A stretch of DNA of 32,000 bases from Aliivibrio fischeri ES114. Lineage in GTDB: Bacteria; Pseudomonadota; Gammaproteobacteria; Enterobacterales; Vibrionaceae. Of this stretch, positions 8,269 through 23,563 are shown piece by piece. Position 1 is the first letter of the stretch. Each line of letters starts with the position of its first letter. The notes beneath the pieces are model-generated. The model was not told where the DNA came from and did no database searches. It saw only the letters and a program-made list of their open reading frames with translations. Location of the stretch: assembly GCF_000011805.1 (NCBI RefSeq), contig NC_006841.2. One strand, written 5' to 3'. Both the position numbers and the translations under genes were made by a program.

Positions 8269-8304
8269 CATTTAATGAAAAAAATGCCCTATTGTGGGCA
8301 ATGT

Positions 8305-8336
8305 AATGCCAGTCAGTTAAGTTGACTGGCATTTTT
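8305..8336 (+). terminator. Rho-independent terminator of the sulfatase gene
   Basis: AATGCCAGTCA (8305-8315) pairs perfectly with TGACTGGCATT (8323-8333) around a 7-nt loop, followed by a T-run to 8336. Confidence 0.75.
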
Positions 8337-8397
8337 AGTTTGGTGGAAAGGGGAGTTTATTGGTTGATATTAATGTATTGGTGTATGCGAGTTAAGT

Positions 8398-8412
8398 CAT
8401 TTGTTTATATTG
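8398..8412 (+). repeat. Left copy of a 15-bp perfect inverted repeat flanking the ATPase-HNH cassette
   Basis: CATTTGTTTATATTG at 8398-8412. The exact reverse complement occurs at 10636-10650. Confidence 0.6.
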
Positions 8413-8458
8413 GTTCACTCTAGCTGATGAGGGAGTGGGCTCAATAAAACAGTACGTA

Positions 8459-8487
8459 CTAACTCGTTTTGGATAATTTCGAGTTAG
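8459..8487 (-). terminator. Candidate terminator hairpin downstream of the HNH gene
   Basis: CTAACTCG (8459-8466) pairs perfectly with CGAGTTAG (8480-8487) around a 13-nt loop. On the minus strand a weak tail follows (TACGTACTGTTTT). Confidence 0.3.
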
Positions 8488-8542
8488 AGATATTTATGGT
8501 GAAATTATTACTTCAAGTATGGAAAGCTATTTTGTTCTTTAG

Positions 8543-9178
8543 TTACTTGCTCACCTCAGCTGCGTCTGCCTTACTTTTTTTAATTAACTCTACAGCATAG
8601 TCTAACATCTCCGGACTCTGATCATTCGCAGCTGCAAGAAGTGCCGCTTTCAGACCTAGATCGACTTTGTTCCTCCCTCCAGCCTTGTGGTAACGAAGAA
8701 GCCCACAAACCTCTATCGTGTTTCGCCCTTTCTCTGTTTGGAATAGATATACTGCGCCAGGAACAGCAACTTTAATGTGCTCATCATAATCATCAAAATG
8801 TGGATGAATAATGCGATAATTTGTACTTTTTCGAGGAAAATTCTTATATGTCTTTCCTTTTGTAGATGTTCTGGTGCCTTTAGCTCCATTGCAATCCTTA
8901 CATGAAACGCAGAGATTCAATGGTTCGAACATCCATTGCGGTGAGCTGTCTTTATCAATGATGTGTTCTGTGTCCCACACCATACCATGAGTTGTGTGCA
9001 TACTTACCTGACAATAGGCACAGGTTCTATCTTGTTCAGCTATGTAATGCTTCTTGATGTTCGACTTCATTGTCGTCACACGGCAGTCGTCCCACTTTTG
9101 CTGAGGGGAGAGAGTATCACCTTGGACATTCTTAACGATTTGGGACTCTTCTTCACTCAATTCATAGGGCTTCATCAT
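8543..9178 (-). CDS. HNH endonuclease, zinc-ribbon type (PtuB/TIGR02646-like; candidate defence nuclease)
   Basis: 211 aa. CAYC (aa 53-56), DTEHIIDK (His72), PLNLCVSCKDCNGAKG (aa 86-101), then IIHPHFDDYDEH. The start codon overlaps the upstream ATPase stop codon (ATGA at 9175-9178). Confidence 0.85.
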   Translation of the reverse strand: MMKPYELSEEESQIVKNVQGDTLSPQQKWDDCRVTTMKSNIKKHYIAEQDRTCAYCQVSMHTTHGMVWDTEHIIDKDSSPQWMFEPLNLCVSCKDCNGAKGTRTSTKGKTYKNFPRKSTNYRIIHPHFDDYDEHIKVAVPGAVYLFQTEKGRNTIEVCGLLRYHKAGGRNKVDLGLKAALLAAANDQSPEMLDYAVELIKKSKADAAEVSK

Positions 9179-10596
9179 TTGGAAAATACCTCTAATGTCT
9201 GATCTAAAATGGATAGCAAGCGTTTTACCTTATCTCCATCTGGCAAGCGAGGTTCATAACTTAATAACCAATGAGCCTTAGTTTTTGTCTCTGATGCAAT
9301 TTCCTTTGACTGACAAATGTCATCCAGCACCTCTATAACTTGGCTTAAGAGATACTCATTGTTGTTTCCAGGGTTGTGAAATAGCGTTGCCAGTTGATAG
9401 TCCGAGGAACGCTCACCATATGGCGTCGCATCGACCAGTGTATTTGTTGCCATATCGTACACACAGCAATTCTTTGCGCTTATGTCAGATACAATAAGTG
9501 GTGAGTGTGTTGCGATAAGGAAGTGACAGCCACGATAGCTTGAAAACGATTCACTTAATATATCAACGAAGCGTTCCTGCCATTGGGGATGGAGACTAAT
9601 TTCAGGTTCGTCAATGCAGATCAGCGCATTGTCTTCTATGGACGATATAATGCCCATAAACAGCAGAAACAAGCATTGTTCGCCAGAACTACGCTTTGAT
9701 AAAGACGAGATAGCGGAACTTTCGATATCTACAATAGATTGGTCGTTTATCAGCGATTTATCTTTCATTGTTTGTATGCTTGAAAGAGTAATCAATCCTG
9801 CTCTGAGCATTCTTGAAATGATGAGTTTAGAGAAAGGTTTTTGTTCAGAGTCCTTCAGATGGATAAGATTAAGGTTTTGATTACCTACGGTTAATGCAAA
9901 TGCAGGTGCCTCTACAATTCTTTCGCAATAACTCAGTAGCTCAACCAACTCCATTTCATCGTGTTCGATATAGGCATTTTTCAAAATTAATTGAGTTTCA
10001 GGCTCAGTTGATGACTGATTTTGGATATTCTTCAGATCTTCGTTAGGGAATGTGAGTTCGAATTTCAGGAGCAATTTTTGACCAAAATCGAACTTCGATA
10101 AAAATCCGACCAGAGCCTTGTGCTTACGTTTTTCGAAATACTCTGCCCCTAACAACTGTTGAATGGCTTTTGATGCAATACGCGTCGATGGAGACAACGA
10201 TGGCATATAAGGTTTAGATCCAATATATGCGTAGAAACCTGACGGCACTGCATCATTTCGAACGATCCAATTAGCTTTAAATTTTTCAAACTGGCTAGTG
10301 GAGGCTGCAATCAGTTTTCTAGGTAAACGGTGCCCATACTCACGCTCTACTGTTTTCCAATTGTGTGGTGAAAAGTCTTCTCTGAGATAGTGAACAGCAG
10401 ATGCTACATGGGTATCCTTTTCAAGTAAGGCACTAGTGTAATAACTGTGGTACTTGTTGCATGTATCAATCAAAAGCTCGGTTTTACCACAGCCATTATT
10501 TCCGATGATAACCGTAAACGCATTACGCTCATCATCTTCTTTATTCCAGAGAACGTGATCCCTTACTTTTTTAACTCTAAAACCCATGATTGCCAC
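9175..10596 (-). CDS. ABC/SMC-like ATPase (AAA_15/AAA_21 type, PtuA-like; candidate defence ATPase)
   Basis: 473 aa. Walker A GNNGCGKT (aa 32-39, nt 10480-10503). A ~260-aa insert follows. Then a signature-like SSGEQ (aa 303-307), Walker B LICIDEPE (aa 325-332, nt 9601-9624) and H-loop ATHSP (aa 362-366). No permease partner is present. It is translationally coupled to the HNH gene. Confidence 0.85.
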   Translation of the reverse strand: MAIMGFRVKKVRDHVLWNKEDDERNAFTVIIGNNGCGKTELLIDTCNKYHSYYTSALLEKDTHVASAVHYLREDFSPHNWKTVEREYGHRLPRKLIAASTSQFEKFKANWIVRNDAVPSGFYAYIGSKPYMPSLSPSTRIASKAIQQLLGAEYFEKRKHKALVGFLSKFDFGQKLLLKFELTFPNEDLKNIQNQSSTEPETQLILKNAYIEHDEMELVELLSYCERIVEAPAFALTVGNQNLNLIHLKDSEQKPFSKLIISRMLRAGLITLSSIQTMKDKSLINDQSIVDIESSAISSLSKRSSGEQCLFLLFMGIISSIEDNALICIDEPEISLHPQWQERFVDILSESFSSYRGCHFLIATHSPLIVSDISAKNCCVYDMATNTLVDATPYGERSSDYQLATLFHNPGNNNEYLLSQVIEVLDDICQSKEIASETKTKAHWLLSYEPRLPDGDKVKRLLSILDQTLEVFSK

Positions 10597-10635
10597 TAAA
10601 GTATCTGATTTAAAAGTTTATTTTACACTTGCTCT

Positions 10636-10650
10636 CAATATAAACAAATG
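10636..10650 (-). repeat. Right copy of the 15-bp perfect inverted repeat flanking the ATPase-HNH cassette
   Basis: CAATATAAACAAATG at 10636-10650 is the reverse complement of 8398-8412. It lies 40 bp upstream of the ATPase start and overlaps a plausible minus-strand promoter (TTGTTT, 16 nt spacer, TAAAAT). Confidence 0.6.
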
Positions 10651-10995
10651 CAATTAGATATATTTTTTATTGATAGTTTTTAGTGTGAGTAAACAAAACT
10701 GAATGACGATTTTTAAATACAGAAGGGAATAATTTTAGCAAGGAATGAGGCAATAACAAATCAGCTATTCCCCTTGAGCGTAATAGTGTTCTACACCTCT
10801 CCAGTCACCGCACATTGGCCTTCAATTACTACCTTCGGTTTCTTCTCTAATATCTCAAGCACAATCAACCTATCTGCAAAACTGCTCCTAAGCGATTTAA
10901 CATTCTTTGACAGATAGCGCTTACACGATTAGCCTGAGAGTCTCTTAGTGGAATAGCCTTTTGTTTGTCGTTTTAAAATGCAGTAGGGAAGCGGA

Positions 10996-12108: not shown

Positions 12109-13461
12109 TTATAAGCGTACTCTTGTTTCAATCGGTTTTTGAGGTGATTGAGCTTGTAAAAAGGGCAGAAGCAGTAACCCTATGACAGCAGCACAAGTCG
12201 AAATGGTGATAAAGAACCCTGTCCATCCATAGGTTTCTAAAATCACCGCTAATGGGTAGCCTGAAAGCGCTGCCCCCATATAAGCAAATAATCCAACAAA
12301 CCCTGTAGCGGCGCCTGCCGAGTCTTTGTGTGAGCATTCAGCCGCAGCCATACCAATTAACATTTGTGGTCCAAAAACAAAGAAACCAACAGAAAATAGC
12401 CCAGCAGCTTGAAACACAAAATTGGTTAACGGCATAAGCCATAACGCTGAAACGGAAAGAAAAATACCAATAGCGAACAAAATATTCATAGGTCCACGAT
12501 TGCCCCCAAAGAGCTTGTCAGAACCCCATCCAGCAACAAGAGAGCCCACAAAACCGCCAATTTCAAATAGGGATAATGCGGCATTTGCATTAATTAAGCT
12601 GTAGTTGTGTTCTTCTGTGAGATACAGGTTTCCCCAGTCATTGACTGCGGTTCTTACGATGTAAACCAATACATAGCTAAAAGCGAGTAACCAAATGTAC
12701 TTATTACTAAACACATAGGTTTTTAAAATCTCTCGATAGCTTAATCCTTGGCCATGGTTTTCTTGTGCGAGCTCTAGTGGATCATTACGCCATTTTCCTA
12801 CACTAGGTAAGCCCATGGTGGTGGGTTTATCACGTAGACGCCAACATACAATAAGTCCAATTGCGACACCAATAATACCCGGTAAGATAAAACCTTCTCG
12901 CCAACTGTAATGAAGGGTTAAATAGCCCACAAGAATAGGGATTAGCGCTCCACCGATGTTGTGTGCTGTGTTCCATATTGCCCAACGGAACCCTCTTTCA
13001 GATCGAGAGTACCAAGTGGTGAGGAGCTTTGAACATGAAGGCCAACCCCATCCTTGAAACCATGCATTAAGTACCCACAGAGAGATAAAAGCCGCTAATG
13101 AACTAGAGAAGCCAAAAGCAATATTAATCAGTCCGGTGGCAATTAATCCTAGCCCCATAAAATAACGAGGGTTAGAGCGATCAGAAATGGTGCCTGAAAG
13201 AAATTTTGATAAGCCGTACGAGATATAGAAAAGAGTGCCGATTAAACCGAGATCACCTTTATCAAGCCCTAAATCTGTGATCATAGCAGGAGCGGCATAG
13301 TTAAAGGTTTTACGAGTAAAGTAAAAACCAGCATAACCAATGTACATGCCGATCATGATATGTAAACGCCAATAGCGATAACTTTCGTTTACTTGAGTAT
13401 CACTAAGTGTGTTGTCATTTGATGTGGTTGAGCGTAAAAATCCAAACATAGTCATACTCAC
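12109..13461 (-). CDS. uhpC: UhpC, MFS-type glucose-6-phosphate sensor protein
   Basis: 450 aa with strong remembered similarity to E. coli UhpC (YRYWR...FYFTRK...SDRSNPRYFMGLGLIATG...GMAAAECSHKDSAGAATGFVGLFAY). It overlaps the uhpB stop by 4 nt and is the last gene of the uhpABC unit. Confidence 0.88.
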   Translation of the reverse strand: MSMTMFGFLRSTTSNDNTLSDTQVNESYRYWRLHIMIGMYIGYAGFYFTRKTFNYAAPAMITDLGLDKGDLGLIGTLFYISYGLSKFLSGTISDRSNPRYFMGLGLIATGLINIAFGFSSSLAAFISLWVLNAWFQGWGWPSCSKLLTTWYSRSERGFRWAIWNTAHNIGGALIPILVGYLTLHYSWREGFILPGIIGVAIGLIVCWRLRDKPTTMGLPSVGKWRNDPLELAQENHGQGLSYREILKTYVFSNKYIWLLAFSYVLVYIVRTAVNDWGNLYLTEEHNYSLINANAALSLFEIGGFVGSLVAGWGSDKLFGGNRGPMNILFAIGIFLSVSALWLMPLTNFVFQAAGLFSVGFFVFGPQMLIGMAAAECSHKDSAGAATGFVGLFAYMGAALSGYPLAVILETYGWTGFFITISTCAAVIGLLLLPFLQAQSPQKPIETRVRL

Positions 13462-14954
13462 ATTTTTGGTAGTGCAATGCTAATTTGAGTGCCAGGAATC
13501 GAGGTATTGGAATTGATGGCCATTTTCCCACCGAGTGCTTGAACTCGCTCTTGCATACCTCTTACTCCCATTCCATTCATTAAATCTTGGGTTTTAAATC
13601 CAATACCATTGTCGGTAATAAAAAGGCTCACTTGCTCATCAAGAGTAAGCTCGATTCTAATTTCACTGGCTTGTGCGTATTTATAAGCGTTATTGAGTGA
13701 CTCTTGGCATAAGCGGAAGATAGTGACTTTAAGCGTATCGCTTAAGCATGAATAATCACCTTGCCAGTTTAGTTGTATATCAACGCCGTGATCGGAAAAC
13801 TCCATTTCACGGATGAGTTGCTCAACGGATTCTTTTAAATCCAAATCATCCAACATTTTGGGTCTTAACTTGGTTAATAATCGCTTGGTTGTGTCATAAA
13901 CATTGAGTGAGAGTGTCTCGATAGTATCGGCGCAACGAACACTCATCTCAGCGGCATCAATGCGTTTAATTATGCTTGCTTGAGTACGGATAGCCGTGAT
14001 GTTTTGGCCTATTTCATCATGCAATTCACGTGCAATATCACGACGAACCGATTCCTCTGCTGTAATTAATTGGCGTGATAGATTTTGATTACGAGACAGT
14101 TCATTACGTAATTTTTGATTGAGATCTTTCTGCTTTTGAACCGCTAATCCAAGTAAAATACCCGTAATGGTTTGGGCTGAAAGCGATAAAAGTAAATCGG
14201 TAATTTCAAGTTTAGATACGCCACTGTGAGCTGCAATTAATGCCACACTATTAAATAATGTCGCTAATAACGCCCCTTGCCACCCGTATCGTACCGCAAG
14301 CAAAATAATCGGAATTGCCATACAAAAAGGAGCGAAGCGTCTTAACTCATCAGGTAAACTGGTTTGTATTAAAATGCTAGCAACCAACAATAGACTGTAT
14401 AAAGCGATATGACGTATTTTAAATTCAACAGCGGTATTGATTAGGTGGGAGCTCAGTGGTGCCCATTTATTTTGAAATAGATAGTTCCACACTAAATAGC
14501 ACATCGGAACCAGCATTAACCCGCCAGTAATGCTCACAAGCCATACCATGTAAATCGAAGGAACATGAGATCCCACGACCGCAATATTGATGAGTGCGGT
14601 GATCATAATGACGCTTGCCATGATGAGAAGATGACGGTTTTGATCGCCGTAGTAATACCGTTTTGCAAACCACGTAATGGGAATACTTAAGGCACTAGCA
14701 ATAAGAACGGTTAGCCATTGTGGTTCATCAAGTAGTAGAGCTAAAGCGATGGTTAGCCCCCATTCTGCAATGTAAATCGCAGGCCAATAGGAAGGGCGAG
14801 TGTGCAGAGTCATTCCTAAGCGTAGGGAGAAGGGAAATAACAAAATGGCAAGCTCAGGGTCATTAATAAAGTAATAAGCAATGACCCATAAGCAAAACCA
14901 AGCACAAGCGGCCATAAAAGCACCGCACAGTGATGTGGCTAAATAAGAGCGCAT
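13458..14954 (-). CDS. uhpB: UhpB, sensor histidine kinase (MASE1 membrane domain, HisKA_3, HATPase)
   Basis: 498 aa. The N-terminal half is polytopic membrane. H-box ARELHDEIGQNITAI, and a C-terminal ATPase domain (ITDNGIGF...GMGVRGMQERVQALGG). Position and size match E. coli UhpB. A TAATG junction links it to uhpA. Confidence 0.88.
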   Translation of the reverse strand: MRSYLATSLCGAFMAACAWFCLWVIAYYFINDPELAILLFPFSLRLGMTLHTRPSYWPAIYIAEWGLTIALALLLDEPQWLTVLIASALSIPITWFAKRYYYGDQNRHLLIMASVIMITALINIAVVGSHVPSIYMVWLVSITGGLMLVPMCYLVWNYLFQNKWAPLSSHLINTAVEFKIRHIALYSLLLVASILIQTSLPDELRRFAPFCMAIPIILLAVRYGWQGALLATLFNSVALIAAHSGVSKLEITDLLLSLSAQTITGILLGLAVQKQKDLNQKLRNELSRNQNLSRQLITAEESVRRDIARELHDEIGQNITAIRTQASIIKRIDAAEMSVRCADTIETLSLNVYDTTKRLLTKLRPKMLDDLDLKESVEQLIREMEFSDHGVDIQLNWQGDYSCLSDTLKVTIFRLCQESLNNAYKYAQASEIRIELTLDEQVSLFITDNGIGFKTQDLMNGMGVRGMQERVQALGGKMAINSNTSIPGTQISIALPKM

Positions 14955-15562
14955 TAGTATGAATCTTGAGTGAAGAGTTTAGCCAGCTCAACGTTATTTT
15001 TTACGTTAAGTTTATCCATTGCATTAGCGCGGTGAACATGGACGGTTTTATGGCTAAGGCCTAATTCAATGGCAATGGATTTTACGTCTAACCCAGTTGC
15101 AAGTAATTGACAAACTTCGTTTTCACGGCGAGTTAGATGATTTAATGCGGTTTTATTTTTAACAGGTGTGGCCAGTTTAATCGCAATATCTGGCGTAAGG
15201 TAACAACCGCCATTAGCACTGGTTCTTACCGCTTGAATGAGCTCATCAGGGCTGCAACGTTTACTTAGATAGCCTTTTGCTCCCAACTCTAGTGATTTCT
15301 CAACCATGGCTGGAGAGTCATGCACACTGAGCATGATGCTCGCAATACCAGATGGAATATCTTCTAACAGGCTCAATCCACTCTCATCTTGCATCGAAAT
15401 ATCTAAAATGACGACATCAGGATGACAACTTGGTAGTCCACGACGCGCTTCTGCTGCTGAGCTAAATTCCCCAACGACAGAGATATCTGATTCCAAACTA
15501 AGTAATTGAGCGAAACCAGAGCGGACAATGATGTGGTCATCAACAAGTGCAACATTAATCAT
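14954..15562 (-). CDS. uhpA: UhpA, NarL/FixJ-family response regulator
   Basis: 202 aa. Receiver domain ([10 protein letters not shown]...[13 protein letters not shown]) plus a LuxR-type HTH ([43 protein letters not shown]). Confidence 0.88.
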
Positions 15563-18340: not shown

Positions 18341-18363
18341 AATAATATTGAGTGGAGAACATT

Positions 18364-19437
18364 GTGCGAAAACAAAATATAAAACGCACATTCCTAGGTG
18401 CTGTAATAGCACTAAGTTTGTCAGGAATGCTTACTGGTTGTGAAAAAGCAGTATCAGAAACAACGGATCAAACGATTAAGCCAGTAAAACTGTTGTCAGT
18501 TAAAGATCTTGCTATGGCTGATTCTGATGCTTTTCTTGCGCGTATCGATGCGACGTATCGAGCGCAGTTATCATTCCAAGTAGGTGGTGAAGTTTCTGAC
18601 ATCAAAGTAAAGATGGGGCAAGCGGTAACGAAAGGTGAGTTATTGGCATCGCTAGATCCAAACGATCTGCAATTGGCATTAGATGCCGCTGACGCTCAGT
18701 TTTCATTAGCAAAAACACAATGGAACCGCGCTAAGAGTTTATACAGCAAGAAGCTAATCAGTACCAATGATTACGACCAGCGTGAAACGCAATATCAAGC
18801 GGCATTGGCAAACTATGAGCAAGCAAAAACAGATTTAAGTTATACCGAAATTCACGCACCGTTTTCAGGCATTATTTCTTACACCTATGTAAAACCACAT
18901 CAGATCGTAGGTGAAAAACAAGAGATCTTAAATCTTATTGATAATTCAACACTGGATGTATCAGTAACATTGCCAATTACTTATGTAGATTCTATTTCTA
19001 TTCCAGCGTTAATCAGCAGTGATATGTGGGTGACGATGGATAATGAACCTAACAATGAAATTAAAGGTAGATTTAAAGAGATCTCCACTCAACCCAATTT
19101 AGACACCAATAGTTATGAAGCCATAGTAACAATGACATTGCCACAAGGCCGTAATCTGTTAACTGGCATGACTGGCCAGGTTCATATACCTAAACAAAAA
19201 AGTTCTGATTATTTACAGTTACCACAGAGTGCGTGGGTAAATAAAGGCCTTAATCAAGGACAAGTATGGTTAATGAACCAAGAGACGAAAACAGTAACGA
19301 AAACAACGTTACCATTAAATGAGCAAGGATTAGTTATTTCTGGTTTACATGCAAATGATTACATCGTTATTGCGGGTGTTGATAGTCTTGTTGAAGGTCA
19401 AACGGTGAAAGCATGGCAGCGTGAGGAAGGTATTTAA
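18364..19437 (+). CDS. RND efflux periplasmic adaptor (membrane fusion protein) 1, lipoprotein
   Basis: The track ORF starts at GTG 18352. GTG 18364 has GGAG (18354-18357) 6 nt upstream and is preferred. Lipobox LSGMLTGC. HlyD/MFP-type hairpin and barrel regions are present. Confidence 0.85.
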   Translation: MRKQNIKRTFLGAVIALSLSGMLTGCEKAVSETTDQTIKPVKLLSVKDLAMADSDAFLARIDATYRAQLSFQVGGEVSDIKVKMGQAVTKGELLASLDPNDLQLALDAADAQFSLAKTQWNRAKSLYSKKLISTNDYDQRETQYQAALANYEQAKTDLSYTEIHAPFSGIISYTYVKPHQIVGEKQEILNLIDNSTLDVSVTLPITYVDSISIPALISSDMWVTMDNEPNNEIKGRFKEISTQPNLDTNSYEAIVTMTLPQGRNLLTGMTGQVHIPKQKSSDYLQLPQSAWVNKGLNQGQVWLMNQETKTVTKTTLPLNEQGLVISGLHANDYIVIAGVDSLVEGQTVKAWQREEGI

Positions 19438-20498
19438 TGAATCGTTCATTATATTCATTGCTTGTATTAACTTTGTTTATATTAACTGGTTGCCAAGAAG
19501 AAAATACAACAGAACAAAGTAAACCACTTTATATTTCAGGTTTTACTGTAAATGCGCCTGTGACTCAACAATTTCGTTCTTTCAAAGGGCAAGTTGTGCC
19601 TGCTGAGCAAACACCGATAGCATTTCGAGTAACGGGTGAAATCGAAGAAGTGTTGGTGAAAGCCGGAGATGTGGTTAAACAAGGACAACTGGTTGCAAAG
19701 CTAGAAGACAGTAAGGTAAAGCAAGCAGTTAATGATGCTAAGGCACAGTATTCGTTAGCGTCAAAACAGTACCTGCGTGGTAAAGAATTGAACCGTCGAG
19801 CTATGATTTCAAAAGCTGAACTTGATGAATTATTTGCGAATAGAGAGCTGGCTCAAGCGACGTATCGTGCGGCAAAAAATCAATTAGCTTATACCCATCT
19901 TGTTGCACCGTTTAACGGTAAAGTGCTTGATGTCTATAAAGAGCAGTTTGAACGAGCTGCAGCAGGCGAGCCGATTATGAATGTGTATCAAAACGATAAA
20001 GTGTACGTGCGTATTGATCTTTCAGATAACGTGTTAGCCATGATAAATCCTGAGACAAATCGAGATTCTTACCATCCGACGACAACGTTTGTTGGTTTAT
20101 CAGACTCTTACTCTATGAAGTATTTGGAGCACACAAGCGAGCCAAATGCTCAAACTCAGACGTATGAAATGTATCTATCTATGCCGCAACCTAATGTAGA
20201 GATCTTACCGGGAACCAGTGCAACAGTGAATGTTGATATGGTTGAAGCAGGGATCACTTCAATTGATGGTTATCAAGTGCCTGTGACAGCATTACAAGCA
20301 GGTCAAAAATCAGGTCTGTTCTATGTTTGGATCATACGTGATGGGCAAGCAACTAAAGTGCCTGTAACTATCCGCAAAATTAGTGGCGAAGGCGCGATTG
20401 TTTCTTCTGGTATCAAACAAAGTGATGTCTTAGCTAATTCAAATTTACGAAAGCTACGTGATGGTAAAAAAGTAATGCTAATGGAGAATCAACACTAA
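19437..20498 (+). CDS. RND efflux periplasmic adaptor (membrane fusion protein) 2, lipoprotein
   Basis: 353 aa. Its ATG overlaps the preceding stop (TAATG). Lipobox LFILTGC. MFP architecture, paralogous to the upstream adaptor. Confidence 0.85.
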   Translation: MNRSLYSLLVLTLFILTGCQEENTTEQSKPLYISGFTVNAPVTQQFRSFKGQVVPAEQTPIAFRVTGEIEEVLVKAGDVVKQGQLVAKLEDSKVKQAVNDAKAQYSLASKQYLRGKELNRRAMISKAELDELFANRELAQATYRAAKNQLAYTHLVAPFNGKVLDVYKEQFERAAAGEPIMNVYQNDKVYVRIDLSDNVLAMINPETNRDSYHPTTTFVGLSDSYSMKYLEHTSEPNAQTQTYEMYLSMPQPNVEILPGTSATVNVDMVEAGITSIDGYQVPVTALQAGQKSGLFYVWIIRDGQATKVPVTIRKISGEGAIVSSGIKQSDVLANSNLRKLRDGKKVMLMENQH

Positions 20499-23400
20499 TG
20501 AACATTGCTGAATATTCAATTAAAAATAAAGTCATTAGCTGGTTATTTATTACCATTTTAACGATTGGCGGTATTACTTCATTTCTTGATTTAGGACGCT
20601 TGGAGGACCCTGCATTTACGATTAAAGATGCAATGGTTGTTGCTACCTATCCAGGAGCAACGTCAAAAGAAGTGGAAGAAGAATTAACCTACCCGTTAGA
20701 AAAAGCGATCCGTAAATTACCTTATATTGATAAAATTACGTCGACCTCATCCAATGGCATGTCACAGATTATGGTGAGCATGAAAATGGACTATGGCCCA
20801 GATGAACTACCTCAAATCTGGGATGAAATGCGTAGAAAAATTAATGATTTAAAACCAACTCTGCCTCAAGGTATTCAATCTTTACAAATCATTGATGATT
20901 TTGGTGACGTGTTTGGTGTGATGATGATGCTTACTGGAGACGATTATAATTACGTTGAACTTAAGCGTTATGCTGACACATTAACTCGTGAATTAGAGCT
21001 TATTGATGGTGTTGGTAAGATCTCGATTGCGGGTGATCAACAAGAAATGCTGTTTGTAGAGATTTCGTTGGATCGCCTAGCTGCCCTTAATCTAGATATG
21101 AATACGGTTGCAGGCTTATTGAATCAACAAAACAATGTGGTTCAAGCGGGTGAAGTATTAGTGAATGGAGAAAGCTTAACGATTCGACCAAGTGGAACAT
21201 TAACTACTGTTGAATCGTTGGGGGACTTGATCATCCATGGCCGTGATACTGGTAATCTTATCCGTCTAAAGGATGTTGCAACGATCACTCGTGGTTTACA
21301 AGAAAAGCCGGGCAACATTATTCGATTTAATGGTAAAAATGCCTTAAATATCGGACTATCTTTTGCATCAGGTGTGAACGTGGTGGAAGTTGGTCAACGT
21401 GTCCAAGAAGAACTAACGTACTTAGAGTCGATAAAACCTGCAGGACTTGAGTTAAGCTATTTCTATAATCAAGCTCAAGAAGTTGATACATCTGTTCGTG
21501 ACTTTATTATTAGTTTAGCGGAAGCAGTAGCAATCGTTATTGTTGTTTTATTGTTTGCGATGGGGATGCGAAGCGGCCTAATTATTGGTGTGGTGTTACT
21601 ACTGACCGTGTTTGGTACGTTTATCTTAATGAGCTACAACAACATTGATCTTCACCGTATCTCATTAGGTGCGCTGATCATTGCGCTAGGGATGTTGGTT
21701 GATAATGCCATTGTAGTGGTTGAGGGGATTTTAGTTGGTCTCAAAAAAGGACGAACCAAAGTTCAAGCAGCTGCGGACATTGTAAAACAAACGCAATGGC
21801 CTTTATTGGGTGCAACAGTCATCGCAATTGCTGCGTTTGCTCCGATTGGTTTATCAGAAGATGCCACTGGCGAGTTCATGGGTGATTTGTATTGGGTGTT
21901 GTGTTATTCACTGTTTTTAAGTTGGGTAACGGCTATTACGATCACGCCATTCTTAGCTGACTTGTTATTAAAAGAAGAAGATAAAAACACAGGTGTAGAA
22001 GAAGACGCTTACAAAGGGTTCTTATTTACTGCATTTGGTTCATCGCTTAAGTTGGCATTACGTTTCCGTTGGTTAACAGTGGCATCGCTAGTGGGTTTAC
22101 TTGTTGTTGCGGTAATGGCGTTTGGTAATGTGAAGCAGCAATTCTTCCCAGCATCTAACACGCCAATGTTCTATGTGGATATGTGGATGCCAGAAGGTAC
22201 AGATATTCGTGAAACAATTAAGCAATCAGAAGCGGTTGAGAGTTACATTAATAAGCAAGACAACATTGAGTTTGTATCAGCGTCGATTGGTCAAGGTATG
22301 CAGCGTTTTGCGCTAACTTATCAACCAGAAAAAAGCTATGAAGCGTATGCACAATTTCAGATCCGAACCACAGATCGCGAATCAATGTTTAGCTTGTTAG
22401 AAAACCTAACCAATTCATTAGATCAACGCTTTGATAAGCCAACATTCCAATTCAAAATGATGGAGTTTGGCCCGTCTCCAGCATCAAAAATTGAAGTTCG
22501 AATTTCAGGACCAGATCCTCAAATCTTACGTAACTTAGCTACAAATGTTGAAGATATTATATTAACGGATCCAGGTTCGAGAAATATTCGACATGATTGG
22601 CGTGAGCGAACAAAGGAACTTACGCCAATATTTAATGAATCAAAAGCGCGTCGTTTAGGTATTTCAAAAGAAGACTTATCGAACACATTACAAATGGCGT
22701 TTGGTGGCTCTACGTTAGGTATGTTGCGTGATGGTACTCATACATTGCCGATCGTGACACGTTTACCAGAGTCAGAACGTGTGGATTTTGAATCTTTACA
22801 AAACGTAAAAATCTGGAGTCCATCGCTTCAAACTTATATTCCAGTAGATCAAGTAATTGATGGAGTAAATTTAGATTGGAGTGAACCATTGATTCAGCGT
22901 CGTGATAGAAAACGTACGATCACAGTAATGGCAGATCATGATTTATTAAGTGATGACACTCCAGCAAGCCTGCTAGCGCGTATTCAACCAAAAGTAATGG
23001 AATTACCATTGCCTGAAGGGTATGAGATTACGTGGGGTGGTGAATATGAATCGTCTAAAGATGCACAGGAGTCTTTATTTGGTTCATTACCAATGGGCTA
23101 CCTATTTATGTTTATTATCACCATGTTGCTATTTAACTCGGTTAAAAAACCATTAAAGGTGATTTGGTTTACGGTTCCACTGTCTATTATTGGTGTGGCT
23201 TTTGGTTTACTTGGTACAAACATGCCATTCAGCTTTACGGCATTTTTGGGACTATTGAGCTTAAGTGGAATGATTTTGAAAAATGGTATTGTTTTGCTTG
23301 ATCAAATCAACCTTGAATTGGCGTCAGGTAAAGATCCATACCTTGCTATCGTAGACAGTGCTATTAGTCGTGTTCGTCCCGTAAGTATGGCGGCATTGAC

Positions 23401-23563
23401 GACAATTTTGGGGCTTATCCCATTACTGTTTGATGCGTTCTTTAGCTCAATGGCGATCACCATCATGGCTGGTTTGGGTTTTGCTACCGTATTAACCTTA
23501 ATTGTGGTGCCTGTTATGTTCGCTATTTTATTTAAGATAAAGCCAGCAGCACAAACTATTTAA
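20498..23563 (+). CDS. RND-family inner-membrane efflux permease (AcrB/HAE1-type)
   Basis: 1021 aa. Its start overlaps the preceding stop. Typical N-terminus (MNIAEYSIKNKVISWLFITILTIGG), two large periplasmic loops and a 12-TM pattern. No outer-membrane factor gene is in the operon. Confidence 0.92.
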   Translation: MNIAEYSIKNKVISWLFITILTIGGITSFLDLGRLEDPAFTIKDAMVVATYPGATSKEVEEELTYPLEKAIRKLPYIDKITSTSSNGMSQIMVSMKMDYGPDELPQIWDEMRRKINDLKPTLPQGIQSLQIIDDFGDVFGVMMMLTGDDYNYVELKRYADTLTRELELIDGVGKISIAGDQQEMLFVEISLDRLAALNLDMNTVAGLLNQQNNVVQAGEVLVNGESLTIRPSGTLTTVESLGDLIIHGRDTGNLIRLKDVATITRGLQEKPGNIIRFNGKNALNIGLSFASGVNVVEVGQRVQEELTYLESIKPAGLELSYFYNQAQEVDTSVRDFIISLAEAVAIVIVVLLFAMGMRSGLIIGVVLLLTVFGTFILMSYNNIDLHRISLGALIIALGMLVDNAIVVVEGILVGLKKGRTKVQAAADIVKQTQWPLLGATVIAIAAFAPIGLSEDATGEFMGDLYWVLCYSLFLSWVTAITITPFLADLLLKEEDKNTGVEEDAYKGFLFTAFGSSLKLALRFRWLTVASLVGLLVVAVMAFGNVKQQFFPASNTPMFYVDMWMPEGTDIRETIKQSEAVESYINKQDNIEFVSASIGQGMQRFALTYQPEKSYEAYAQFQIRTTDRESMFSLLENLTNSLDQRFDKPTFQFKMMEFGPSPASKIEVRISGPDPQILRNLATNVEDIILTDPGSRNIRHDWRERTKELTPIFNESKARRLGISKEDLSNTLQMAFGGSTLGMLRDGTHTLPIVTRLPESERVDFESLQNVKIWSPSLQTYIPVDQVIDGVNLDWSEPLIQRRDRKRTITVMADHDLLSDDTPASLLARIQPKVMELPLPEGYEITWGGEYESSKDAQESLFGSLPMGYLFMFIITMLLFNSVKKPLKVIWFTVPLSIIGVAFGLLGTNMPFSFTAFLGLLSLSGMILKNGIVLLDQINLELASGKDPYLAIVDSAISRVRPVSMAALTTILGLIPLLFDAFFSSMAITIMAGLGFATVLTLIVVPVMFAILFKIKPAAQTI

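Follow-up and report, generated by a model that had tools for sequence, protein, structure and literature searches.

Septu systems pair an ATPase of the ATP-binding cassette (ABC) type, PtuA, with an HNH nuclease, PtuB. According to the accounts of Li et al. 2024 given in two other papers (PMC12819146, PMC12640716), the Septu of Escherichia coli forms a 6:2 PtuA:PtuB 'inflammasome-like' complex in which ATP inhibits DNA nicking, and phage tail-fibre proteins are reported as its trigger. For Septu EcB88, the Walker A, Walker B and H-N-H residues are all required, the phenotype is like that of abortive infection (Abi), and tRNA-Tyr is cleaved in its variable loop (PMC13096335). Also, the substrate specificity of Septu has been described as 'context-dependent' (PMC12640716), and in complexes of known structure two PtuA C-terminal extensions plus PtuB's C-terminal domain make up a nine-helix bundle (PMC12819146). 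Here, we analyze two adjacent genes in a 32,000-nucleotide stretch of Aliivibrio fischeri ES114 (contig NC_006841.2; hereafter the window), which an earlier note had read as a Septu-like accessory anti-phage pair lacking a reverse transcriptase (RT). This proposal is supported by full-length matches to PADLOC models, by structural matches to PtuA and PtuB, and by an accessory distribution. With a probability of about 90%, the pair would make up an anti-phage system of the standalone (type I) Septu kind, on a self-contained cassette of 2.2 kb that landed in a defence hotspot of the Aliivibrio chromosome.

A comparison with the PADLOC profiles shows that both proteins match Septu models along their full length. 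Residues 4-472 of PtuA align with positions 1-447 of the 448 in PDLC00283 (E=1.8e-153, 510 bits), and residues 1-210 of PtuB with positions 2-219 of the 223 in PDLC00345 (E=2.5e-90, 300 bits), with dozens more PtuA and PtuB subfamily models ranking below these two. Judged by these profiles, the pair belongs to a subfamily already covered end to end by PADLOC Septu models, so that the possibility left in the earlier note of a divergent subtype or a distinct system loses its ground. Pfam assigns AAA_21 (70.4 bits, cutoff 27) and AAA_15 (60.2 bits, cutoff 32.1) to PtuA, and ABC_tran stays at 18.9 bits against a cutoff of 25, which, with an alkyl sulfatase and a LysR regulator as neighbours, agrees with the proposal that this is not a transporter ATPase. 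When single sequences are searched against those of the Protein Data Bank (PDB), the similarity of PtuA to retron PtuAs, to AriA and to E. coli PtuA is confined to the Walker B/H-loop region, and PtuB matches 8EE7_C at E=1.4e-3; the use of a family profile raises the PtuA matches to 1e-12 to 1e-20 and, for PtuB, retrieves four PtuB entries and one Cas9 HNH. Public annotations of subfamily members read just 'ATP-binding protein' or 'hypothetical protein', and no paper dealing with a member of this PtuAB subfamily from Vibrio or Aliivibrio turned up in a literature search.

The predicted structures lead to the same family. Confident AlphaFold2 models were obtained for PtuA (predicted local distance difference test, pLDDT, 82.7; predicted template modeling score, pTM, 0.77) and PtuB (pLDDT 84.0, pTM 0.74), and the Foldseek comparison of these single-protein models with published structures returned solely PtuA and PtuB chains as best matches. 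For PtuA, the first 36 matches in the PDB are all PtuA chains (retron Ec83, Ec78/Eco7, 'retron IA' and the E. coli Septu 8EEA), followed by AriA; for PtuB, the first 12 are all PtuB chains, followed by Cas9 HNH domains. Moreover, both models end in helices (Table 1), which makes them compatible with the published nine-helix clamp. From the models and the solved complexes, we infer that PtuA's C-terminal extension would be the PtuB-docking element and the C-terminal helical domain of PtuB the PtuA-binding domain. PtuB relatives with 57-61% identity (e.g. L087 5001-7276, from Raoultella ornithinolytica) pair with standalone PtuAs of ~550 aa that resemble the PtuA of the window mainly in the C-terminal third, a concentration of similarity that points in the same direction as the docking assignment. 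In these comparisons the PtuA C-terminal extension is co-conserved with PtuB, and the N-terminal and insert regions are variable.

Regarding the gene pair itself, the two minus-strand open reading frames (ORFs) and their ATGA overlap, described in the earlier note, are read directly from the sequence, and no long ORF competing with them overlaps 8543-10596. The gene order, ptuA then ptuB, adjacent and on the same strand, is common to all homologous cassettes inspected, and the 4-bp overlap is kept in every one examined (L001, L003, L084-86, L087 and L089), indicating translational coupling of both genes within one predicted operon. Also, at least 25 PtuA and PtuB homologs fall on contigs of equal size, which is evidence of pairing. 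The length of 473 aa proposed for PtuA corresponds to an ORF that is present when read from the GTG codon; nonetheless, the true start is probably the ATG at 10587, giving 470 aa, because close PtuA homologs are all 470 aa long and begin with MGFRV, and the three codons from GTG to ATG show no conservation as protein.

The motifs named in the earlier note (GNNGCGKT, SSGEQ, LICIDEPE, ATHSP, CAYC, DTEH, PLNLCVSCKDCNGAKG and IIHPHFDDYDEH) are all found where it had placed them. In alignments of 32 PtuA and 31 PtuB homologs, with identity down to about 27-32%, the PtuA residues G29, N31, G34 and K35 of Walker A (ATG numbering, as for the following ones), S300, S301 and G302 of the signature, D326, E327, P328, E329, L332, H333 and P334 of the Walker B/D-loop, and T360, H361, S362 and P363 of the H-loop are invariant, with E303 and Q304 of the signature conserved in at least 90%. 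In PtuB, C53, C56, D69, H72, N88, C93, C96, N97 and K100 are invariant. Thus, as far as can be read from these motifs, the residues for ATP binding, ATP hydrolysis and HNH catalysis are all intact. A second PtuB motif, HPHFD(x)Y(xx)H, is located outside the region covered by sequence alignment to solved PtuBs; its H125, H127 and D129 are invariant and its Y131 and H134 at least 90% conserved, in homologs down to 32% identity. Comparison with three other cassettes gives dN/dS (nonsynonymous to synonymous substitution rate) values of 0.10-0.12 for ptuA and 0.10-0.21 for ptuB, and both ORFs are full length relative to the PADLOC models. Because of these low ratios and complete frames, both genes are, by this measure, under purifying selection and maintained. 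Resistance to phage that depends on the ATPase and HNH motifs would be the predicted function of the pair.

In addition, ptuB is mosaic relative to ptuA, with a synonymous divergence (dS) from the V. parahaemolyticus cassette L001 of 0.88 in ptuB and 0.18 in ptuA. The nucleotide identity to this cassette drops from ~0.95 to 0.64-0.79 beyond about 8900 (8543-8900 in the window, the 3' half of ptuB), and no part of the cassette varies more than the PtuB C-terminal helical domain. This suggests a recombination event inside the cassette, in the stretch that encodes that domain.

The pair is part of a unit that recurs in Vibrio, where cassettes at L001, L003 and L084-86 lie in unrelated genomic contexts and share the leader and the protein lengths (Table 1). 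No mobility gene is found within the 2.2-kb unit. A TTGnTT-16-TAAAAT arrangement is conserved upstream of ptuA in the window, L001 and L003, and the site at 10620-10647 would be the putative promoter of the cassette. A consensus promoter scan misses this site and reports TTGTTA-16-TAAAAT at 10759-10732; with two promoter-like sites against a shuffle mean of 8.2, the scan lends no statistical support to any promoter call. For the conserved leader of 121 nt, folding is no better than for its shuffles (z = -0.92, with 31 of 200 shuffles as good), and a structured regulatory RNA in the leader was considered and is unsupported by this result.

The two arms of a perfect inverted repeat of 15 nt, CATTTGTTTATATTG, bracket the cassette at 8398-8412 and 10636-10650. 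The right arm overlaps the putative -35 element and shows an indel plus substitutions in L001 and L003, and the left one falls within a 126-bp orphan stretch (8378-8503) shared with none of the other cassettes or Aliivibrio relatives. None of the 83 loci compared contains the exact 15-mer. The probability of such a repeat by chance is ~0.7% in an estimate assuming independent, identically distributed bases; a shuffle test (125 of 2000) is dominated by short local palindromes and is an invalid null for a distant repeat. The terminal repeat of a mobile element was considered and left unused in the argument, given that the left arm falls outside the shared unit and the 15-mer does not recur in those loci. 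The repeat may be a chance occurrence or the footprint of a local recombination. Likewise, no convincing direct repeats or target-site duplications are seen at the slot boundaries. The best phage match is 26% identical (Vibrio phage 10N.222.45.E8_PE002), and among plasmids full-length matches (80% or more of the query) do not exceed 29% identity, with partial matches of 38-46% confined to the C-terminal ABC half; carriage of the subfamily by known phages or plasmids was thus considered and finds no evidence in these matches. Unannotated proteins of ~1100 aa adjoin two V. parahaemolyticus PtuAB cassettes (L001 3941-7255 and L089 8275-11577), where one of the genes diverges from its cassette and the other converges on it. 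Neither protein has a Pfam match on record, and the L001 protein, the one scanned, has no PADLOC match either; these genes may be another accessory or defence gene or a marker of an island.

In the chromosome, the cassette occupies a variable slot. The earlier note placed it alone between a sulfatase and a LysR gene; the location stands, and the sulfatase is more precisely an alkyl sulfatase of the metallo-beta-lactamase (MBL) fold, with Alkyl_sulf_dimr, Alkyl_sulf_C and Lactamase_B domains and 97% identity to its Aliivibrio finisterrensis counterpart. Among 80 species-representative loci anchored on this sulfatase, none carries PtuA or PtuB. This absence at the same locus, together with the presence of the pair at unrelated loci elsewhere, makes it accessory. 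The slot is bounded by sequence conserved in Aliivibrio relatives: homology to L004, L005, L062 and L082 stops at 8353-8377 and resumes at 10746-10789. Because in these relatives the same slot holds differing cargo (PDC-M22, Upx, Rpn-like), the position downstream of the alkyl-sulfatase gene is, on this comparison of loci, a defence hotspot. Moreover, in L004, L005 and L082 a pair of genes, for a transporter of the major facilitator superfamily (MFS, 401 aa) and an AraC regulator (295 aa), lies between the slot and the LysR gene. The lengths of 274 and 399 bp given for the flanking spacers are correct. The reading of the 399-bp spacer as plain non-coding DNA does not hold, since it contains scars of the MFS gene and of the MFS-AraC intergenic region, including a 25-aa remnant (...EILEKKPKVVIEGQCAVTGEV) that matches the C-terminus of the MFS protein of the relatives. 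Homology in the LysR gene resumes at 10982-10987. Judging from these scars, the MFS-AraC pair is deleted in the window. In A. logei (L082 8025-8669), the alkyl-sulfatase gene is truncated to its C-terminal 214 aa, which implies a deletion on the other side of the slot there too.

Considering the described systems, a working model can be outlined. PtuA dimers would oligomerise via the helical insert of ~260 aa that separates Walker A from the signature, and paired C-terminal three-helix extensions would clamp the helical C-terminal domain of PtuB, in a complex like the 6:2 assembly of E. coli. In the uninfected cell, bound ATP would hold the HNH nuclease silent, PtuB being sequestered by the ATP-loaded PtuA oligomer. 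Infection would then release or unmask PtuB, the signal being perhaps a phage structural protein such as the tail fibre, a drop of ATP, or both. The zinc-finger HNH site would comprise N88, N97 and, as the general base, H72, and zinc would be coordinated via Cys53, Cys56, Cys93 and Cys96. The freed PtuB would cut nucleic acid (DNA or tRNA-Tyr) and stop the production of phage in a manner resembling abortive infection.

Several results weigh against the assignment to Septu or limit how far it reaches. The identity to every solved PtuA or PtuB is 12-20%, and the global TM-scores of the Foldseek matches are low (0.25-0.35 for PtuA and 0.4-0.5 for PtuB). The NCBIfam models for PtuA (NF041760, 55.5 bits, cutoff 500) and PtuB (NF041761, 48.8 bits, cutoff 150) are matched far under their cutoffs, and Pfam HNH on PtuB is under the gathering threshold, so naming at the equivalog level is unsupported. 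In the case of TIGR02646, to which type the earlier note had assigned PtuB, the similarity is significant (40.5 bits, E=2.6e-10) and yet under the cutoff of 52.15, which leaves the likeness and not the formal membership; PtuB relatives at ~60% identity carry the TIGR02646 label from JGI (Joint Genome Institute). Also, in the PtuA family profile search, AriA from PARIS (E=2.6e-20) is marginally ahead of the solved PtuAs, which means that the ATPase alone is not diagnostic. Finally, the oligomeric state, the trigger and the substrate in the model above are extrapolated from Septu systems that differ among themselves.

One departure from this model is that the Vibrionaceae PtuAB subfamily differs in function from the E. 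coli and retron Septu systems, in its trigger, its substrate or through a second metal or nucleic-acid site, or that it moves by a recognisable insertion or recombination signal. A functional difference could be suspected because of the 12-20% identity to solved PtuABs, the canonical four-Cys zinc-finger HNH and the extra invariant HPHFD(x)Y(xx)H; an unusual mobility, because a promoter-plus-two-gene unit moves between hotspots without a recombinase of its own and is bracketed by the 15-nt inverted repeat. Plain homologous exchange of the flanks would be an alternative for the movement of the cassette, and on the whole we consider it unlikely that the subfamily is set apart in either of these ways.

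As a second alternative, the pair could represent another kind of ABC-ATPase/nuclease defence that does no more than resemble Septu, whether PARIS-like (AriA/AriB), Gabija- or OLD-like, or PDC-M01-like. The AriA match of the family profile, which is nearly full length and marginally above any solved PtuA, goes in this direction, and PADLOC also lists AriA, PDC-M01A and ATPase_I-A for this protein. However, these non-Septu ATPase models reach 54-69 bits and align to nothing but the C-terminal ABC half, compared with 510 bits for the full-length PtuA match, and 36 PtuA chains precede AriA in Foldseek. Moreover, the partner is an HNH protein that matches PtuB at 300 bits, and neither a Toprim/DUF4435 AriB nor a GajB helicase. 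Taken together, this makes a resemblance without kinship to Septu very improbable.

The standalone character of the Septu cassette has to be weighed against the possibility that it is the orphaned effector of a type I-A retron (PtuAB of Retron-Eco7/Ec78 or Eco4/Ec83) that lost its RT and non-coding RNA (ncRNA), being either unregulated and toxic or in decay. The best solved-structure matches do include PtuA and PtuB of retrons Ec83 and Ec78, and the top NCBIfam matches are the retron Ec78 PtuA and PtuB equivalogs together with TIGR02646, all under cutoff. Nonetheless, the scores far under cutoff (55 against 500 and 49 against 150 bits) mean that the proteins are not retron-type orthologs. Walker A starts at residue 29 of PtuA, whereas the aligned position in retron PtuAs is about residue 88; this indicates that the ~60-aa N-terminal extension used by these enzymes to contact RT and ncRNA is absent from the 470-aa protein. 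The earlier note reported neither an RT nor a mobility gene in the window, and none is seen: neither the flanks nor the rest of the 32,000 nt contain an RT ORF, and a scan of the whole window at Rfam gathering thresholds matches no family, hence no retron msr or other known RNA. In the same way, among the genes called next to the seven inspected homologous cassettes there is no RT, and purifying selection speaks against decay. Going by its gene content and relatives, the cassette is a standalone (type I) Septu with no retron partner, and an origin as a retron remnant is extremely unlikely. Finally, it is extremely unlikely that the pair is not primarily an anti-phage system and persists by horizontal spread as a selfish module (of addiction or toxin-antitoxin-like type) or as an element acting against plasmids or in competition between bacteria: the cassette is indeed a minimal mobile unit at unrelated loci, it adjoins an S-type pyocin/immunity pair in V. 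parahaemolyticus, and retron-derived PtuAB is toxic when unrestrained (PMC12819146, PMC12640716), but all tested Septu systems confer phage resistance (PMC13096335, PMC12819146, PMC12640716), the slot carries other defence systems (PDC-M22 and Upx) in relatives, there is no evidence for a separate antitoxin, and such a role is compatible with defence, as both overlap in Abi systems.

The remaining features of the region are ordinary. The terminator-like hairpins between the sulfatase gene and ptuB fall in the resident flank shared with relatives. Beyond the LysR gene, an Uhp-like module (12109-15562) comprises an MFS transporter, a MASE1 histidine kinase and a LuxR-type response regulator, and the rest of the window holds ordinary regulators, transporters and an operon for efflux of the resistance-nodulation-division (RND) type (18352-23563). 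No mobility genes are seen in the window, and outside the cassette none of the five ORFs scanned against PADLOC matched a defence model.

Table 1. Coordinates of the PtuAB cassette, its slot and related loci (window positions unless a locus handle is given; SMC, structural maintenance of chromosomes; MAG, metagenome-assembled genome).
Feature	Location	Strand	Description
Transferable cassette unit	8504..10708	-	~2.2 kb: 121-bp 5' promoter/leader (promoter putative), ptuA, ptuB, 39 bp of 3' sequence
Putative cassette promoter	10620..10647	-	TTGTTT, 16-nt spacer, TAAAAT; weak match by eye
ptuA	9175..10587	-	ABC/SMC-type ATPase, 470 aa from the probable start, ATG 10587; alternative GTG 10596 = 473 aa
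PtuA Walker A GNNGCGKT	10480..10503	-	aa 32-39; lysine = K38 (GTG numbering), K35 (ATG numbering)
PtuA ABC signature-like SSGEQ	9676..9690	-	aa 303-307 (GTG numbering)
PtuA Walker B LICIDEPE, then D-loop-like SLHP	9586..9624	-	LICIDEPE aa 325-332; D329/E330 = nt 9607-9612
PtuA H-loop ATHSP	9499..9513	-	aa 362-366 (GTG numbering)
PtuA C-terminal three-helix extension	9181..9357	-	aa 411-469; AlphaFold2 helices 411-426, 432-442, 453-469
ATGA stop/start overlap ptuA/ptuB	9175..9178	-	read from sequence
ptuB	8543..9178	-	zinc-finger HNH (beta-beta-alpha-Me) nuclease, 211 aa
PtuB HNH core	8876..9022	-	CxxC C53/C56 (CAYC, aa 53-56), D69-x-x-H72 (DTEH), N88, CxxC-N C93/C96/N97; PLNLCVSCKDCNGAKG aa 86-101
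PtuB second conserved motif IIHPHFDDYDEH	8777..8812	-	aa 123-134, 3' of the HNH core; HPHFD(x)Y(xx)H
PtuB C-terminal helical domain	8552..8659	-	aa 174-209; AlphaFold2 helices 174-185, 189-209
Terminator-like hairpins between sulfatase gene and ptuB	8285..8333	.	13-bp stem 8305-8333 (+); site 8300-8285 (-)
Variable slot	8378..10745	.	bounded by sequence conserved in Aliivibrio relatives
Scar of MFS transporter gene	10789..10869	-	3'-terminal 81 bp; 91% identical to L004 11160-11240
Scar of MFS-AraC intergenic region	10903..10941	.	39 bp; 92% identical to L004 12497-12535
Related cassettes, unclassified Vibrio	L084-86		93.8% nt identity over exactly 8504-10708; neighbours PIN_12, AAA_14 and UvrD-like genes
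Related cassette, V. parahaemolyticus	L001		91% nt identity over 8595-10708; neighbours an S-pyocin/immunity pair
Related cassette, V. splendidus	L003		86% nt identity over 8556-10692; between a DEAD/ResIII helicase gene and pheST
Slot cargo in A. logei	L082 9013-11699		PDC-M22A/B candidate defence pair (E=4e-146 and 1e-204)
Slot cargo in Aliivibrio MAG	L062 12015-15788		Upx, 1257 aa (E=7.6e-240)
Slot cargo in A. finisterrensis LMG 23869	L004 10124-11050		YhgA/Rpn-like Transposase_31 gene
Slot cargo in A. finisterrensis A33	L005 10296-11034		two small unknown ORFs

The locus would add an intact Septu from the Aliivibrio/Vibrio group whose sequence is far removed from all PtuABs studied for structure or function, and it could be a comparison point for what Septu cuts (DNA or tRNA-Tyr) and what it senses. 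Also, the slot downstream of the alkyl-sulfatase gene, where Aliivibrio strains swap Septu, PDC-M22, Upx and Rpn-like cargo, would be useful for mining more systems in the genus. The significance is modest, and the finding would not surprise a specialist.

Among the known systems, the standalone PtuAB of E. coli (8EE4/8EE7/8EEA) shares with this locus a two-gene ptuA-ptuB operon without RT, a PtuA of ~465-470 aa whose ABC head is split and whose C-terminus carries a helical extension, and a PtuB of ~210-240 aa that combines an HNH fold with a C-terminal domain made of helices. The structural match has a Foldseek probability of 1.0, whereas sequence identity is ~13-16%, and the similarity of the single sequence is limited to the Walker B/H-loop (E=3.8e-5). 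Moreover, E. coli PtuB has 'NLAASALD' where the PtuB of the window has its second zinc-binding CxxC, 'NLCVSCKDCN'. EcB88 is also a standalone PtuAB, in which the Walker A Lys, the Walker B Asp and the HNH His/Asn are essential, with the same 16-residue spacing between His and Asn (PMC13096335), H75/N91 there and H72/N88 here, and by spacing alone the latter would correspond to the essential residues of the former. An Abi-like behaviour would be expected for the pair in the window; tRNA-Tyr as substrate is not assumable for a Vibrionaceae homolog.

The PtuABs of type I-A retrons (Retron-Eco7/Ec78 and Eco4/Ec83; 9KJX, 9NNB, 9E8Z, 9N69) obtain the best E-values in Foldseek, come directly after AriA when the PtuA profile is searched, and present the same ATPase-HNH pairing and C-terminal clamp architecture. 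[quoted passage not shown] AriA of PARIS (8UX9, 8V45-49) belongs to the related AAA_15/21 ABC ATPases, has a similar length and gives the best profile-to-PDB match, although its effector AriB is a Toprim nuclease and the partner here an HNH protein, and the PADLOC AriA models score 62-67 bits against 510 for PtuA. The closest natural relatives are the Vibrio cassettes L001, L003 and L084-86, which share 86-94% nucleotide identity with the cassette described here over 2.1-2.2 kb.

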